Both the position numbers and the translations under genes were made by a program. From the sequence record MT446420.1: 64,000 nt of DNA. One strand, 5' to 3'. The notes under the pieces were generated by a model. It was not told the origin of the DNA, searched no databases, and saw nothing but the letters and a program-made list of their open reading frames with translations. Positions 23,223 to 33,119 of the stretch are shown here, one piece after another (the stretch's first letter is position 1; every line of letters starts with the position of its first letter). This DNA is from Escherichia virus TH54.

Positions 23223-23681
23223 TTATCCGAAAATTTGAGTCATTACCTTGTACATCGATTTACCCATCACATACTGCCATTGACTCGGTTTAATCAAAGC
23301 AAATGCATCGAACTCTGGGACTGTACTACCATCCGGGAAGGTATGATAGGCAGAGCATTTACTATGTCTGAACTGCTCATGCTCGACCGGAACCGTGTAC
23401 AGAAACAGGTGAAGATTTTTGTTATCTGAATAGCGGAATTCACCCAGGTCCTTTAAGAATGCTGGGTCATATTGGGTAAACCCGGTTTCTTCTTCGGTTT
23501 CACGGATAGCAGCTTCAATCGGGGATTCATCAGCTTCAACATGACCCTTAGGGATGTCCCATTTGTGTGCAGGCATACCTGGTTTACGAGAACCGGTCAC
23601 ACGACCCATGAATAACTCTTTATCTTCAGTCATGAAAATAATGCCAGCAGATAATTCTTTCACCTTGTTTTTCTTACTCAT
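23223..23681 (-). CDS. nudE: Nudix hydrolase
   Basis: Nudix box GHVEADESPIEAAIRETEEETG. Confidence 0.85.
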   Translation of the reverse strand: MSKKNKVKELSAGIIFMTEDKELFMGRVTGSRKPGMPAHKWDIPKGHVEADESPIEAAIRETEEETGFTQYDPAFLKDLGEFRYSDNKNLHLFLYTVPVEHEQFRHSKCSAYHTFPDGSTVPEFDAFALIKPSQWQYVMGKSMYKVMTQIFG

Positions 23682-23910
23682 CGTCACGTTCCCAGGATTG
23701 GTTAAAAATATCACTCATTAAAAATTCAAGTCTATTTTCCAATGAAGGGGATTCACTATCAGAAATTTGAATTCTGTATTCAGAAATAGGGCGGAACATA
23801 TCCAAGTCAGTTTCTAAATCATCTTTGATTTTCTCTTCTGATGTACCTGTATCATAGGAATACAGATAAGAATCACACGACTCAGATTTAATATAAATTG
23901 CAATACTCAT
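23674..23910 (-). CDS. hypothetical acidic protein, 78 aa
   Basis: ORF track. Confidence 0.5.
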   Translation of the reverse strand: MSIAIYIKSESCDSYLYSYDTGTSEEKIKDDLETDLDMFRPISEYRIQISDSESPSLENRLEFLMSDIFNQSWERDDE

Positions 23911-24494
23911 TTACGGCATTCCTCAATAAAAGAGTTCAATGTATTTTTCTTGGCGATATCGTCGTATACCTTTTTAACTTTAGAAATACGAAAAGGTACT
24001 TCAATAACCATAGTCCATAAAAGTGATGCAATAAGTCCAACAGCAGCAGAAGAAATGCACGCGCCCATTACAGCTACAGGTGCTTCATTTTTACCTGTCA
24101 GGAAAAACCACAGGATTGGTAAAAATAAGATTCCAGCCCATGCATAAAACCTGGAACAAATTAACTTATCAAATTCATCTTTCCAGGTACGAAATCCATA
24201 TTTCTTGCTATAAGAAATTAATGGGTCTGGTGTCTGTTCTTTGAGTGGTTCTGGTTGATGCCCATTAATGATGTATCCCATTTTATATTCCTTAATTAAA
24301 AGCTCTTTCATATGACGATTGCATCGCGACCAATCAACATTTTCAACCTTGATTCCTTCATCACCATCATCAAGGTTCGCCCAATATTTTTTGGCAATCA
24401 TAAATTCGTCTCTTGATACAATTATACCTGTATTTTCTGGGCGACGGATGAAGTTTACATCAACACCCATACACCCAGGTTCATAAAGGGCCAT
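23907..24494 (-). CDS. membrane protein with C-terminal FIEECRK tail
   Basis: TM helices; tail shared with 27832..29060 proteins. Confidence 0.6.
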   Translation of the reverse strand: MALYEPGCMGVDVNFIRRPENTGIIVSRDEFMIAKKYWANLDDGDEGIKVENVDWSRCNRHMKELLIKEYKMGYIINGHQPEPLKEQTPDPLISYSKKYGFRTWKDEFDKLICSRFYAWAGILFLPILWFFLTGKNEAPVAVMGACISSAAVGLIASLLWTMVIEVPFRISKVKKVYDDIAKKNTLNSFIEECRK

Positions 24495-25183
24495 TACCAG
24501 CCCTCCATGGGGAATTCCAGATATACTTGAGCATTAACGCGGATTTCATTGGTAACTTTATTAACACGGTCAGTTTTACGAGATACGCGACCAAACCAGC
24601 GCCAACCGTTACTAACTGTTTTTGTTCCAGTATGCCAGGTCTGCCAGTTGAATTCACATAATGTGCGGTCAGGAGCTTCTTGAACTAAAAGTTCACCCGC
24701 CTTGATTTTTTCCAGAACTTCCTGGTGCCACTGGCGATAGATAAGTTCGCCATCAGGAATCTGACTGAATTCTGCAGTTCCAAGAGCAAAATTAGTAGGG
24801 CAAACAGAAGCGTTAACCAGACCCAGGATGTGTTCAGAATGGTAACGAGGGTTATCATAATCAGGTTGTCCTGCTGTAATAAAATGTTGTCCTGCTGGAA
24901 TATCTGGTCGCGGTACGTCATCATGGTGATATCCAGGGATAGCAGGATACCAACCAGGCATTAACATGTGTACACGGGAATCAAATACAATATCAGGGCC
25001 ACATTGCCAATCTTCAGGCAGGTTTTCAATAAAGCTACGAGTAATAGGACCGCCATGCTTATGCGCAAATTCTGGATAGCAGTTAAAGAACATGGGCTCA
25101 TTTTTAATCATATCATTACTGATATCTTGAGCAAATTGACCAACTTCACGCATTTGACTATTAAAAGTTTTTGGACTGTTCAT
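24494..25183 (-). CDS. hypothetical protein, 229 aa
   Basis: ORF track. Confidence 0.65.
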   Translation of the reverse strand: MNSPKTFNSQMREVGQFAQDISNDMIKNEPMFFNCYPEFAHKHGGPITRSFIENLPEDWQCGPDIVFDSRVHMLMPGWYPAIPGYHHDDVPRPDIPAGQHFITAGQPDYDNPRYHSEHILGLVNASVCPTNFALGTAEFSQIPDGELIYRQWHQEVLEKIKAGELLVQEAPDRTLCEFNWQTWHTGTKTVSNGWRWFGRVSRKTDRVNKVTNEIRVNAQVYLEFPMEGW

Positions 25184-25242
25184 AATATTTTCCTCATTGA
25201 TTGTGGGACCATTGTGTCATGGTCCCACTTGGATGTACACAA

Positions 25243-26202
25243 TTATTTTTCGAAAGGACGAATTAAATGTTGGTTAGCCTTAAAGCGTTTAACATAGTCT
25301 TCATGACCCAGTGTGTTATACATATTAACCACGTCCTGATAATGTTCCCAGGCATACTCACGGAACCATCCAGAAGTAATGGAGGTGCAGACTTTTTCCA
25401 GCGCAATATGGAAGCTCATGGATGGAGAGATATTGAACTCATTAGGAACCTGCGAACGTTCCAGAGCGAGCACACATGCTTCTTCATAAACCCCTGCCAG
25501 TTTAATAACATCAGGCAGTGCTTCAAATTTTTCACGTGAGGTCATGACTTCTGAATCATCCTTCATATAGAACTTATATGCAGGCTTATCAGCAAGCGCC
25601 ACAGCCTCGTGGATGGAGTCATGGTCAAGGGTATAGATTGTATCATTAAAGAAAGTTTTCTTGCCCACATCTAGTTTAGGGTGACTGTATGACAGTGTTT
25701 CTGCCTGACGCTGCAGCATGATTTTCTGCAGTTCATCATTAAGAACAACACCCTTATTGCGAAGATAATTAATATGACTCATGGTCTTCAGGAAGAATGG
25801 GTTGTTCTTCAGGTAACGATGAGACAATTTAATCGCCAGACAAATATCAGGAGTCGCCCAATAGAAACCTGTAAGACGGTCTTTCTTAATATGATTTTCA
25901 GCGTATTTCAAGAGACGATAACTTGAGGTGAAATCTTCGTCTTGAAGCTCACCAGTAATTTCTCGTACGTTAGTCAGGGCACGGACAATATAAGCTTCAA
26001 AATAGGTTTCTTTGCCATTGTACATACATTTAAAAGCTTGGACATCAGGGTTATCCACAGGAACATGAGCACCGAACATACGTGCTTTAAAGTGGTTCCA
26101 AGAACCCTGGTCAGCGATAAAGTCCCAATCAGAGTTTTCAATTTTCTGACTTTCAATCAGACCAGCGTTATGTAATGCACGAGAACCAATAACTAACATC
26201 AT
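25243..26202 (-). CDS. hypothetical protein, about 320 aa (start trimmed, GAGG RBS)
   Basis: ORF track 25243..26265. Confidence 0.65.
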   Translation of the reverse strand: MMLVIGSRALHNAGLIESQKIENSDWDFIADQGSWNHFKARMFGAHVPVDNPDVQAFKCMYNGKETYFEAYIVRALTNVREITGELQDEDFTSSYRLLKYAENHIKKDRLTGFYWATPDICLAIKLSHRYLKNNPFFLKTMSHINYLRNKGVVLNDELQKIMLQRQAETLSYSHPKLDVGKKTFFNDTIYTLDHDSIHEAVALADKPAYKFYMKDDSEVMTSREKFEALPDVIKLAGVYEEACVLALERSQVPNEFNISPSMSFHIALEKVCTSITSGWFREYAWEHYQDVVNMYNTLGHEDYVKRFKANQHLIRPFEK

Positions 26203-26221
26203 AATATTTTCCTCAGTAAAC

Positions 26222-26461
26222 TTAAATTTCAGCAACGTAATCGTTATGCAATTCCCACATATCATCAGAATTATTCTTAATGATAGGAATTATCTCATTA
26301 GAGATTTCTTCTGCATAAGGGTCATTGATACAGTGAGCATCTTCAAAACGAACACCATAATCAGACTTCTTATAAGAGAAGCCATAAATCTTTTTAAACT
26401 TGGCACGAGTAATGCGTACCGGTTCATTAGACTTATCGGACATCGGAGCGTAATACCACAT
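26222..26461 (-). CDS. hypothetical protein, 79 aa
   Basis: ORF track. Confidence 0.5.
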   Translation of the reverse strand: MWYYAPMSDKSNEPVRITRAKFKKIYGFSYKKSDYGVRFEDAHCINDPYAEEISNEIIPIIKNNSDDMWELHNDYVAEI

Positions 26462-26573
26462 ATATTCTCCTCATATTGTGTAAAGTAATAGTATCGCAGT
26501 TTTTTGGAGTTGTATACTGCTTCTGCAATATTCTAAAAATAATTTATCCTCCTATCACATCCTTGTGATAATT

Positions 26574-26808
26574 TTAGCAGCTACTCGGATACCAGATTTT
26601 ACCATCGGCACGAGCAACGAAGGTACGACCAGCTTCTTCACCATAACAAGAGCTGTTCAACCAGTCTTCAAGACGGACTTCGCCGTCATAATCATCAAGC
26701 TCAACACCAAAATCTTGAGCAGAAGCCATATCTTTTACTTTCTTATACAGTGCAGCCAGTTCAAGGGCAGCTTTTTCTAATTCAGCATGTTCAACAGCAG
26801 TAGTCATT
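26574..26808 (-). CDS. small protein, W-x-SS-C tail family member A (ends KIWYPSSC)
   Basis: tandem paralog; start trimmed. Confidence 0.55.
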
Positions 26809-26817
26809 TTTATTTCC

Positions 26818-27045
26818 TTAGCAAGACATAGAGGAGTTAAACCAGAAACCTTTACCATCTGGGATACCATAATCACCGCGAATCCAGTCATACTCTTCGT
26901 ATTCTGGACAACCCGCAGGAATATATCGTTGAAGACTGTCAGCATACACATGAAAGTATTCACCAGTTTTATCGGCCAGTTGTTCACCTTCACAGATTAG
27001 TGCACGGATTTGGTCTTCAATTTCTTTAACAGTTTTAGCAGTCAT
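26818..27045 (-). CDS. small protein, family member B (ends FWFNSSMSC)
   Basis: tandem paralog. Confidence 0.6.
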   Translation of the reverse strand: MTAKTVKEIEDQIRALICEGEQLADKTGEYFHVYADSLQRYIPAGCPEYEEYDWIRGDYGIPDGKGFWFNSSMSC

Positions 27046-27054
27046 TTTATTTCC

Positions 27055-27252
27055 TTAGCATTCGTAAGAGGAGGACACCCAGGAGCCACCCGTAATTGTA
27101 ATACAGCCATTGTAAATCGTGATATGACGGTCCAGATGGTTTTCACCTTCGATATAGATGTCGGCTTCTTCACGTTCTTCTTTACAAATCTGGATAACGT
27201 TTTCAATAGCTGCCGCGGCAGTACGGATTGCACAATCTAATTCACGAGACAT
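27055..27252 (-). CDS. small protein, family member C (ends GSWVSSSYEC)
   Basis: tandem paralog. Confidence 0.6.
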   Translation of the reverse strand: MSRELDCAIRTAAAAIENVIQICKEEREEADIYIEGENHLDRHITIYNGCITITGGSWVSSSYEC

Positions 27253-27261
27253 AATAATTCC

Positions 27262-27543
27262 TTAACATTCAACAGAAGAGGACACCCAACCACCATTTTC
27301 CAGGTCAGTTGTATAGTCATGAGTATTAACAATAGCCCATTCAGGATGACCATGTTCTTCCCAATGAGCAAGGTCGGCTTTCAAGGCGCCAGGAGAATAA
27401 TAGTCACCGCCCATACCGCGAGCAGGGTATATATTAAAATGAGTCTCATATTTGTCTGCAATTTCCTCGGCACGACGAATAGCTTTATGGATATCATTTA
27501 CTGCGGCCAGAAGCTCTGGTTGGTTATGGTTATCATTCATCAT
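27262..27543 (-). CDS. small protein, family member D (ends GGWVSSSVEC)
   Basis: tandem paralog; start trimmed. Confidence 0.6.
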   Translation of the reverse strand: MMNDNHNQPELLAAVNDIHKAIRRAEEIADKYETHFNIYPARGMGGDYYSPGALKADLAHWEEHGHPEWAIVNTHDYTTDLENGGWVSSSVEC

Positions 27544-27544
27544 A

Positions 27545-27835
27545 TTAGCACACCTCAGAAGAGGAAACCCAGGCACCAACAGTAACAATGCCGTTTTCAA
27601 CTTGCCCGCCGTTGTTTTCAATATGGTGGGCGAACCATTCGGAACATTCATAACCGACTGGGTGATATGTACGGCCGGTGCCGTAATCGCCAGTGCTGAA
27701 TTCGATACCATATTCATCTGCGATTTCTTCACAGTGTTTTTCAATTTCAGAGGTCTTATTTAGAAGAGAATAGATAGCTTTTTCTGCAGATTTCTCATCA
27801 TAATACTTGGGGATAGCAATTTCAATTTTATTCAT
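27545..27835 (-). CDS. small protein, family member E (ends GAWVSSSEVC)
   Basis: tandem paralog. Confidence 0.6.
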   Translation of the reverse strand: MNKIEIAIPKYYDEKSAEKAIYSLLNKTSEIEKHCEEIADEYGIEFSTGDYGTGRTYHPVGYECSEWFAHHIENNGGQVENGIVTVGAWVSSSEVC

Positions 27836-28185
27836 GATTTACATTCCTTAATAAAGGTTTCAAGGTCATTACGTTTTGTTTTGTCTAGAAACTTATTATA
27901 CTCAGCCATTGCCGAAGCATATCTCTTACGACTAGGAGCATTCACGGCGTTTGTGTGACAAATATCATACACAACCGGGATAAAATAAGCCACAATAGCC
28001 GGAGCGATTATCATAAAGAAACCCATCTCAATAGGCATGACTCCCTCGATTGCAGCCATAACCGTGGTCATTACCAGACCAACCAAACCACCAAGCATGG
28101 CGGTGACAATCCCTAATAATAAATTGCCACCAATATCATATTCAGCCAATTGATAAACATGTGAGGCAAGACTAGGCCGTTCCAT
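27832..28185 (-). CDS. membrane protein with C-terminal FIKECKS tail
   Basis: TM helices; start trimmed. Confidence 0.55.
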   Translation of the reverse strand: MERPSLASHVYQLAEYDIGGNLLLGIVTAMLGGLVGLVMTTVMAAIEGVMPIEMGFFMIIAPAIVAYFIPVVYDICHTNAVNAPSRKRYASAMAEYNKFLDKTKRNDLETFIKECKS

Positions 28186-28531
28186 TACGAACCTCCTTAA
28201 TAAATTCTTCGGCACATTTAATTTTGTGCTCTTCTTGTAGGGAAACACATTTTTGTTCCCACGCTTTAACTCGCCCGCGATAACCTTTATTCATATGATT
28301 TTGATGCCACACGTTTATCAATAACATGCTCAGGACTGTAATAAAAGGTGCTGCAATTACTAGCGTCCAGGCGACTCCAACACTAATGATATTCATATCT
28401 CCACAAAGCACCATCATTATAACCCCAACGATGCACATGGACAGAGCTCCAAATGGAGGCATAAGGTCTTTATCAATCTTGTCTGCGTATACAAATTTTT
28501 CTGGTTTACTTGGCAGATATAACGTTCGCAT
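28172..28531 (-). CDS. membrane protein with C-terminal FIKEVRNG tail
   Basis: TM helices; start trimmed. Confidence 0.55.
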   Translation of the reverse strand: MRTLYLPSKPEKFVYADKIDKDLMPPFGALSMCIVGVIMMVLCGDMNIISVGVAWTLVIAAPFITVLSMLLINVWHQNHMNKGYRGRVKAWEQKCVSLQEEHKIKCAEEFIKEVRNGTA

Positions 28532-29060
28532 TTTGAACCTCTTTAGCATATTCACGACATTCAGCAATAAAACGATTAAGCTTACGTTTCCGTTTACGAC
28601 ATTCTAATGTGTACTCAGCCGCCAAATCAAAAAGCTCATCTTTATCATAATTTTTAATATCAGTATAAGTTGGGCGGCGGTCAACCATTCCAAAGTGGTC
28701 ACCATTTTCCAACATCAAATAACACACCAAATGGTCATCATCGTCCGCATTAATAAGCTGCTTATAATCACTTGGTTCATTTAACGCATACACAGAATAA
28801 CTCAGTCCAGCGAATTCCACTCGTTGAATACCCAGATTTACATCAATAATTTCCAAGGCATCTGCGAAAGAAAGGTCTTCAGCTAAAGCAAAAATAAAAG
28901 GCAATTTGGTAGTATCACCGCGACTTGTTGTTCTTCTTAAGAAATCATTGGAATAGCCCAGGTCACCACGGATTCTATAAAGAACTGTATTAGTTTCAGT
29001 GGCAAGACCGCTACCACCAAACCAGTCTACATTTGATATAAGGTCAGTGTATAAGCTCAT
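28506..29060 (-). CDS. hypothetical protein with C-terminal FIAECRE motif
   Basis: ORF track, start trimmed. Confidence 0.55.
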   Translation of the reverse strand: MSLYTDLISNVDWFGGSGLATETNTVLYRIRGDLGYSNDFLRRTTSRGDTTKLPFIFALAEDLSFADALEIIDVNLGIQRVEFAGLSYSVYALNEPSDYKQLINADDDDHLVCYLMLENGDHFGMVDRRPTYTDIKNYDKDELFDLAAEYTLECRKRKRKLNRFIAECREYAKEVQNANVISAK

Positions 29061-32966: not shown

Positions 32967-33043
32967 TGGTCGGGGTGGTGGGATTCTAACCCACAACCTA
33001 CGGTTTAGAAGACCGTTGCTCTATACAATTGAGCTACACCCCG
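32967..33043 (-). tRNA. tRNA-Arg (anticodon TCT), CCA encoded
   Basis: hand-folded cloverleaf: acceptor CGGGGTG/CACCCCG, D-stem GCTC/GAGC, anticodon loop CTTCTAA, T-stem GTGGG/CCCAC. Confidence 0.8.
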
Positions 33044-33045
33044 GG

Positions 33046-33119
33046 TGGCCCCATCCGGACTTGAACCGGAAACCTGCCAGTTATGAGCCGGATGCTCTAA
33101 CCAATTGAGCTACAGGGCC
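33046..33119 (-). tRNA. tRNA with anticodon CAT (Met or Ile2)
   Basis: hand-folded cloverleaf: acceptor GGCCCTG, D-stem GCTC/GAGC, anticodon loop CTCATAA, T-arm TCCGG-TTCAAGT-CCGGA. Confidence 0.75.

Follow-up and report, generated by a model that had tools for sequence, protein, structure and literature searches.

Five consecutive minus-strand genes, designated P1 to P5, occupy positions 26574-27835 of a 64,000-nucleotide stretch of Escherichia virus TH54 (MT446420.1; the whole stretch is referred to below as the window) and encode small proteins that share a C-terminal tail ending in cysteine. Homologues of these genes are found, with few exceptions, upstream of and on the same strand as a single-copy gene for a protein of 319 amino acids (aa) with the domains DUF7277 and DUF7275, and the two families are probably linked in function. 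The reading that we favour, to which a probability of roughly 0.4 is assigned, is that they would form a two-component module in which a single enzyme is combined with several diversified small partners, all bearing the same invariant handle at the C-terminus. In T-even-type and many other large lytic phages, small early genes of unknown function occur in blocks, which have been a recurrent source of host-takeover and anti-defence activities. Within such a block, five anonymous open reading frames (ORFs) now become a defined and testable unit with a tail signature, a confident predicted fold and a near-obligate enzyme-like neighbour, kept from the T4-like phages of Escherichia, Klebsiella, Aeromonas and Acinetobacter to Phapecoctavirus and Pseudomonas phages.

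A tandem array of five small genes

The array begins with P1 (27545-27835), which encodes an acidic protein of 96 aa ending in GAWVSSSEVC, and continues along the minus strand with P2 (27262-27543; 93 aa, ending in GGWVSSSVEC), P3 (27055-27252; 65 aa, GSWVSSSYEC), P4 (26818-27045; 75 aa, GFWFNSSMSC) and P5 (26574-26807; 77 aa, KIWYPSSC). P2 is the canonical member, in which a helix is followed by EEIADKYE, by YPARGMGGDYYSP and finally by the GGWVSSSVEC terminus; P3 is shortened and lacks the YGMGG hairpin; and P5 represents a subtype that carries the tail motif twice, as an internal WLNSSC (within DWLNSSCYGEE) and as the terminal WYPSSC. The preliminary description of this DNA, made from the letters alone, had delimited the array, its strand and its shared Cys tail correctly, and the Cys that it had placed at or next to the C-terminus is the very last residue in the ORF translations of all five paralogues. 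It had also proposed a shared central EEIADxYG segment, which is clear only in P1 and P2; the corresponding residues of P4 are EQLADKTG, and P3 and P5 have degenerate versions. All five proteins are acidic, with isoelectric points (pI) of 4.4-4.9 and net charges of -7 to -10. No hydrophobic stretch and no signal peptide with a lipobox was found in P1-P5, which have polar helices at their N-termini and the Cys at the C-terminus. The source phage is of the T4 type and belongs to the Gaprivervirus/Dhakavirus group; over positions 26400-28300, the window shares 97.5% identity with Escherichia virus TH57 and 90-94% with VR20, SP18 and VR7.

Four of the proteins match PHROG 899 (E = 1.3e-21 for P1, 1e-18 for P2, 3.5e-15 for P4 and 8.6e-10 for P5), and P3 matches PHROG 4882 (E = 3.3e-36). 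The match of P3 to PHROG 899 is only marginal (E = 0.055), as compared with 5.5e-6 against the hidden Markov model (HMM) built here for the whole small family. Since pairwise BLAST among the five is weak (best 7e-5), their paralogy is based on the PHROG 899 profile. The five genes are ancient paralogues and not recent duplicates. Orthologues of the P1 to P5 types are recognisable across genera in varying order (p1 p2 p5 p4 p3 in Slopekvirus and Karamvirus, p1 p2 p3 in Mosigvirus), with P3 orthologues in all three of these genera. Compared with the Dhakavirus orthologues, P4 is the fastest-evolving paralogue (54-65% identity) and P5 the most conserved (97-100%). The synonymous divergence (dS) from phage JS98 is mosaic, amounting to 0.09 for P2, 0.49 for P5, 0.57 for P3, 0.96 for P4, 1.26 for P1 and 1.3 for the gene of the DUF7277-DUF7275 protein (hereafter the partner). 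Such patchiness along the array indicates recombination breakpoints between adjacent paralogues.

The genes are closely spaced. The stop codon of the upstream e.3 homologue overlaps the start codon of P1 (ATGA), P1 and P2 are separated by 1 nt, and the sequences between TAA and ATG at the three following junctions are GGAATTATT (P2-P3, 9 nt), GGAAATAAA (P3-P4, 9 nt) and GGAAATAAAA (P4-P5, 10 nt). Junctions composed of a stop codon and a ribosome-binding site, which the preliminary description had ascribed to the entire array, are thus present at three of the four internal boundaries (TAA-GGAAATAAA-ATG-like), but not between P1 and P2. The similarity of these three junctions raises the question of whether the tail could be a chance resemblance among non-coding ORFs, or a by-product of a repeated TGC TAA GGAAATAAA ATG element retained for translational coupling. 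We consider this extremely improbable, and the coding properties of the genes refute it. The ratio of nonsynonymous to synonymous substitutions (dN/dS), estimated against three relatives, is 0.1-0.5 for all five genes (0.10-0.14 for P1 and 0.17-0.52 for P4). Among 149 members of the family, all six Ser codons occur at the two conserved Ser positions, and both TGT and TGC encode the Cys; since codons of both the TCN and the AGY families are used, what is under selection is the protein sequence, not a motif in the nucleotides. P5, the last gene, is followed by a 110-nt spacer and yet retains the tail, and hundreds of homologues exist in distant phages. When the window was translated in six frames and all ORFs of 35 aa or more were searched with the expression W.{1,3}S[SA].{0,3}C$, 5 of 855 matched, and these were exactly P1-P5, while none of the 6519 opposite-strand ORFs of 80 related loci (described below) carried the tail. 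The tail is conserved at the level of the protein and is not a by-product of the repeated ribosome-binding junction.

Extent and predicted fold of the small family

PHROG 899 and PHROG 4882, both of unknown function, are the catalogue home of P1-P5, and on the searches made the family is found only in phages and is uncharacterised. Scans of the five proteins against Pfam, NCBIfam and PADLOC gave nothing significant, and when the family profile was run against PDB sequences, nothing but designed coiled coils came up (E > 0.2); these profile searches, of the kind the preliminary description had suggested, bring up no characterised family. With P1 as the query, tblastn retrieved 466 phage records, among them those of Mosigvirus, Karamvirus, Slopekvirus, T4-like phages of Aeromonas and Yersinia, Phapecoctavirus and one Pseudomonas phage. 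A HMMER scan of 1.84 billion representative sequences yielded about 60 clusters of proteins of 70-120 aa; long proteins (800-2500 aa) that matched profile positions 5-50 only were rejected as coiled-coil false positives. The members follow a common plan, in which a long helix ending in EAExIADExG is followed by xxF and a YGMGGTYYP hairpin, then by a variable acidic insert containing Trp, and finally by the GxWxSSSxxC terminus.

The invariance of the tail was quantified on 153 distinct HMM-defined members from the 80 viral loci. Cys is exactly terminal in 150 of the 153, Ser occupies the third position after the Trp (W+3) in 151 and the fourth (W+4) in 130, and the distance from Trp to Cys takes mainly two values, 7 (109 members) and 5 (35 members). 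In 35 of 151 members, those of the P5 type, the Ser pair is followed by Cys without any gap. The P5 subtype, with the pattern DW[LQ]SS.CYGE ... W..SSC, is old and has been kept from Aeromonas to Escherichia phages, and its double motif is also retained in Yersinia phages and Phapecoctavirus. In longer relatives (140-170 aa), which occupy the same genomic position, the helix-plus-tail core is preceded by unrelated extensions at the N-terminus. Four viral metagenome arrays contain such extended members of 139-154 aa, and one subtype in these arrays ends in GWISSSICW, with the Cys penultimate and a Trp last, which is a rare exception. In three phages of about 168 kb, six members are present, of which five lie upstream of the partner and the sixth about 1 kb downstream, and their tails are degenerate, with Ala in place of one Ser (GWMASASSC, GWQPSAGIC).

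Source records name all six proteins, that is P1-P5 and the partner, as hypothetical, apart from several mislabels. P2 orthologues appear in public records as 'tail completion protein' and orthologues of P4 and P5 as 'major capsid protein' (records UPEC01, UPEC07, vB_EcoM_005, 04086 and vB_YenM_P8). On acidic proteins of 65-96 aa these structural labels are evident annotation errors that may propagate, and they can now be corrected.

An AlphaFold2 model of P2, built on an alignment of 77 sequences, is confident, with a mean predicted local distance difference test score (pLDDT) of 91.4 and a predicted template modelling score of 0.79. It comprises helices at residues 9-32, 51-63 and 71-74 and strands at 35-41, 44-49 and 84-88, of which the first two form the hairpin with the YGMGG turn and the last corresponds to GGWVS. 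The small protein is therefore predicted to be a soluble alpha/beta domain, with a long amphipathic N-terminal helix on a three-stranded sheet. The W-V-S-S-S segment is modelled at a pLDDT of about 92 and the final three residues, V-E-C, at 54. According to the model, the invariant Trp would anchor the C-terminal strand, the Ser-Ser pair would be a conserved turn directly after it, and the Cys with its free carboxylate would sit on a flexible stub of either 0 or 2 residues. A Foldseek search of the PDB with the P2 model found no significant relative (best E 1.8), the best structural neighbours, none of them significant, being N-terminal domains of Phd/YefM-type antitoxins; in BFVD, Foldseek recovered only uncharacterised members of the same family. 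One of the roles considered in the preliminary description, that of a membrane anchor, is unlikely for acidic proteins with no hydrophobic segment and a predicted soluble alpha/beta domain.

The exposed position of the Cys allows another interpretation, in which it would be a metal, iron-sulfur or redox ligand, with the amphipathic helices driving homo- or hetero-oligomers of the paralogues and thereby gathering several C-terminal thiols, which would hold a metal or cluster or form disulfides; in a variant of this idea, the thiol and the carboxylate would together form a zinc-binding warhead directed at a host metalloenzyme. The single invariant Cys per chain, situated at a free C-terminus, would suit both versions, as would the coiled-coil-like character of the N-terminal helix, whose profile positions 5-50 attract long coiled-coil proteins, and the co-occurrence of several paralogues in one genome. 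However, the family has no other conserved metal ligands, only a single copy is present in 12 of the 80 loci, the Cys is penultimate in a few members, and neither the invariant Ser-Ser pair nor the linkage to an enzyme gene would be explained. We regard both versions as quite unlikely.

The predicted fold also bears on whether the genes could encode precursors similar to those of ribosomally made and post-translationally modified peptides (RiPPs), with the tail giving rise to a lanthionine or aminovinyl-cysteine (AviCys) type of crosslink or to a cleaved peptide product. A Ser-rich motif followed by a C-terminal Cys superficially resembles the cores of lanthipeptides and AviCys peptides, the C-terminus of epidermin being an example of an AviCys core, and small tandem genes beside one enzyme gene are likewise reminiscent of precursor genes. 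In the small family, however, it is the tail that is conserved and the body that varies, contrary to the leader and core logic; the W-x-S-S of the tail lies inside a confidently folded domain in the P2 model; and the zero spacing between Ser and Cys in the P5 type is too short for rings. Moreover, Pfam and PHROG scans of ten neighbouring genes detected no LanB, LanC, LanM, LanKC, LanD or radical-SAM family, and gave only NUDIX, DUF7275/DUF7277 and families of unknown function. A RiPP-like origin of the tail is thus very unlikely.

Pairing with the partner and a candidate two-component module

The partner gene (25243-26202, minus strand) lies about 0.4 kb downstream of the array in the same orientation and encodes the single-copy 319-aa protein, in which DUF7277 (4.8e-26) and DUF7275 (1.9e-75) are recognised and which is assigned to PHROG 2141. 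The annotations of related phages had hinted that the small genes are always followed by one for a protein of about 310-340 aa, and the association was examined from both sides. Starting from the partner, 80 viral loci were fetched with the partner alignment, and 211 tail-bearing ORFs were found within 3.6 kb upstream of the partner on the same strand, compared with 6 such ORFs elsewhere on that strand. Of the 80 loci, 74 carry between one and six small genes. In the opposite direction, loci were sought by means of a degenerate DNA pattern corresponding to YGMGGxYY; 30 with members of the small family were retrieved, and the partner is encoded downstream on the same strand in all 23 loci that extend far enough, the other 7 ending before that point. 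Two further independent contigs, identified by exact protein look-up, have the same arrangement.

The pairing extends through Straboviridae, Stephanstirmvirinae, Otagovirus and metagenomic phages, with Gaprivervirus, Dhakavirus, Mosigvirus, Tegunavirus, Slopekvirus, Karamvirus, Biquartavirus, Acajnonavirus, Phapecoctavirus and Otagovirus among the genera, together with an unclassified Pseudomonas phage. The numbers of tblastn records for the small family and the partner run in parallel in phages of Escherichia (252 and 259, respectively), Aeromonas (57 and 59), Enterobacter (34 and 36), Klebsiella (34 and 35) and Shigella (18 and 18). When same-strand ORFs of the 80 loci were clustered, small-family clusters occurred in 63, 33 and 19 loci, and any other neighbour family in at most 31, which reflects the synteny of the T-even lineage. 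The small family is the only neighbour conserved beyond that synteny. Homologues of the partner in 185,579 bacterial species genomes number 12, mostly on phage-like contigs of metagenome-assembled genomes or as actinobacterial copies without the small family, and the module therefore appears to be essentially restricted to phages.

T4 itself has neither component. Its region 64000-76000 contains no match to the HMM of the small family (best E 1.5) or to that of the partner (0.93), which agrees with the remark in the preliminary description that the architecture could be matched to no familiar T4 gene family. Because T4 lacks both genes and its e.2 directly abuts e.3, the whole block can be regarded as an insertion relative to T4. 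The inserted block (about 24494-27835, relative to T4 67652-68319) lies between e.2 (23907-24494) and e.3 (27832-28185) and comprises a 229-aa RB69ORF132c-like gene, the 319-aa DUF7277/7275 gene, a 79-aa ORF and P5-P1. The preliminary description had also proposed that the conserved tail points to a shared partner. Synteny lends support to a partner as such, but identifies it with the downstream DUF7277-DUF7275 gene and not with the adjacent e.3 and e.4 membrane proteins with FIxEC tails, which had been named as candidates; the latter are present in T4, where the family is absent, and are not conserved as neighbours outside Tevenvirinae.

In an alignment of 11 partner homologues (27-94% identity), 29 residues, mostly polar, are invariant. 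The N-terminal invariants comprise G6-S7-x-A9 and D25-x-D27, accompanied by a conserved Glu near residue 76 on a likely strand, and those of the C-terminal domain K125, H128, H194-D195, H198, E240-E241, E248-R249 and T273-S274, within the motifs K..SH, HD..H, EE, ALER and TS..G. The GS...DxD group fits, as a short motif only, the signature hG[GS]-x(9-17)-D-h-[DE]-h of Pol-beta nucleotidyltransferases (NTases), and the spacing of H...HD...acidic residues in the second domain recalls, again as a short motif only, HD phosphohydrolases. Some GenBank records name partner orthologues 'nucleotidyltransferase'. The partner thus looks enzyme-like and is possibly a combination of an NTase and an HD domain.

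According to the favoured reading of a two-component module, the small proteins would act together with the DUF7277-DUF7275 protein encoded just downstream, so that one predicted enzyme would serve several alternative small partners, either as substrates or as adaptors. The invariant tail would be the common handle that docks into the enzyme, and once docked it might be modified, by nucleotidylylation of the Ser pair or by a reaction at the terminal Cys; alternatively, the small proteins might function as adaptors through which the enzyme would reach different targets. With their diversified helical bodies, the paralogues would differ from one another in target or in role during infection, be it host takeover or counter-defence. 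What we infer here about interaction, enzymatic activity, modification and biological target derives from genomic context and sequence. The Trp and the Ser-Ser pair of the tail are fixed in the fold, and the Cys stub has only two lengths, features that are more suggestive of a site of recognition or reaction than of a constraint from packing. Actual covalent modification of the tail by the partner is nevertheless, in our estimate, unlikely. The same holds for the more elaborate possibility of a phage modification or carrier system, in which a bifunctional NTase/HD-like enzyme would charge, and perhaps discharge, the Ser-Ser...Cys-COOH tails and the charged small proteins would be modified effectors, or carriers that deliver the attached group to host targets early in infection. 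If the enzyme does act on the tail, a new protein modification chemistry in phages and a ready-made pair of tag and enzyme would be at hand; if it does not, the family would still be a widespread group of small effectors, in which the terminal Cys offers an obvious point for mutation.

Two known systems offer functional parallels. GlnD is a uridylyltransferase/uridylyl-removing enzyme with an N-terminal nucleotidyltransferase and an HD domain that acts on small PII proteins. The GS...DxD group followed by H...HD in the partner, combined with small alpha/beta proteins that might undergo reversible nucleotidylylation, resembles the GlnD-PII pair (and GlnE-glutamine synthetase) as a functional analogy only. 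The module has no sequence or profile similarity to GlnD, PII or the NTP_transf_2 and HD families of Pfam, has no ACT domains and, in contrast to GlnD, is confined to phages. In addition, the candidate acceptor would be the C-terminal Ser-Ser/Cys tail, whereas in PII it is a Tyr in the T-loop, and the small proteins show neither a P-II match in Pfam nor the ferredoxin-like beta-alpha-beta-beta-alpha-beta fold. In the MntA-HepT (MNT-HEPN, type VII) toxin-antitoxin system, a minimal nucleotidyltransferase AMPylates a small partner, and here too an NTase-like gene is adjacent to and co-oriented with that of a small, possibly modified protein. However, the small proteins of the module lack the conserved Rx4-6H motif and any HEPN match in Pfam or match in PADLOC, the large protein has 319 aa and a second domain, up to six paralogous partners are present, and the module resides in early regions of lytic phages and is almost absent from bacterial genomes. 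Were the carrier scheme correct, which we consider unlikely, it would constitute a counterpart of GlnD-PII or MntA-HepT peculiar to phages, in which both the fold and the acceptor motif are new and one enzyme acts on many substrates. From lanthipeptide and AviCys precursors, which share with the small family a Ser-rich stretch with a C-terminal Cys and the location of small tandem genes by one enzyme gene, the family differs in being folded, in its conserved tail, in the zero Ser-to-Cys spacing that it allows and in having no Lan-type enzymes nearby. By sequence, the two-gene module belongs to none of the known systems considered and appears to be new as a system. A full-text literature search for the tail motif, the paralogous arrays, the pairing and either family returned nothing, and the PHROG and Pfam catalogues hold no record of the tail motif, the tandem paralogy or a link between the families.

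Several observations weigh against a two-component module with an enzyme at its centre. The partner occurs without a recognisable small gene in 6 of the 80 loci, namely in CC31, in a clade of phages of about 141 kb and in one locus with little upstream sequence, and shorter homologues in actinophages and actinobacteria are also without the small family. Because some phages and actinophages carry the partner only, it can exist alone. In the window, a 79-aa gene and the 110-nt spacer separate the array from the partner gene. As to the enzymatic nature of the partner, PDB sequence and profile searches were empty, Pfam and PHROG scans that included weak hits revealed no known family beyond the DUFs, and a single-sequence AlphaFold model had a pLDDT of 37 and was unusable. 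An hhalign comparison of the partner with an ANT(6) sequence gave a probability of 0.3, and this lead was dropped. Since no fold match was obtained, the NTase/HD assignment depends on short motifs and on labels given by others. Moreover, synteny in phage early regions can mean co-regulation rather than interaction, and the invariant Trp could be purely structural.

These points leave room for a different explanation, which is possible although we think it doubtful: P1-P5 may be five independent small early effectors, for instance acidic inhibitors or mimics, each binding its own host protein, in which the tail is a structural cap and the partner is linked through shared regulation or through descent as part of a mobile cassette, without direct interaction. 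Many phage inhibitor proteins are acidic, and all five paralogues are strongly so, as their pI values indicate. The position of the Trp in a confidently modelled strand would agree with a cap, the occurrence of the partner without small genes in some phages and actinophages would agree with the lack of an interaction, and the wide difference in rate among the paralogues, seen in the identities of P4 and P5 given above, suggests separate selective pressures. On the other hand, a structural role would not explain why the terminal Cys is kept in 150 of 153 members despite the variable stub, nor would this explanation account for the survival of the pairing and its orientation in phage groups that have no other synteny in common.

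Neighbouring features of the locus

The ORF between the array and the partner gene (26222-26461, minus strand) encodes 79 aa and belongs to PHROG 3723, of unknown function. It is lineage-restricted: RB69-like phages have it as ORF135c, and in VR20-like and Slopekvirus relatives, as in the majority of the other loci examined, it is either missing or cannot be recognised. Its membership in the module is uncertain. In the spacer between this ORF and the array (26462-26573), a 7-bp hairpin, UAUCACA-AGGA-UGUGAUA, directly follows the stop codon of P5; its folding energy is not significantly below that of shuffled sequences (z = -1.64), and it was not flagged by the terminator scan. Promoter and terminator predictions for the region did not exceed the chance level.

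In other phages (Acj9, 44RR2.8t, BillNye, Culver and one further locus), genes of nicotinamide adenine dinucleotide (NAD) or RNA metabolism are found near the partner, among them NAMPT with ribose-phosphate pyrophosphokinase, a GatB_Yqey-domain protein with ART-PolyVal and an RNA ligase, a polynucleotide kinase, and a transfer RNA (tRNA) cluster. These neighbours are anecdotal and were not seen in the systematic neighbour clustering.

Upstream of P1, the e.3 and e.4 homologues (27832-28567) encode overlapping predicted membrane proteins of PHROG 2330 and PHROG 2604. They end in FIKECKS and FIKEVRNGTA, respectively, and thus have FIKE[CV] in common; both are present in T4 and are not specific to the module. 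On a larger scale, the array is flanked by nudE (23223-23714), a NUDIX gene, and by tRNA genes (32967-33119), as the preliminary description had indicated. The tRNA genes are two in number, Arg(TCT) and Met(CAT), adjacent to each other on the minus strand, and the counterpart region of T4 has eight.

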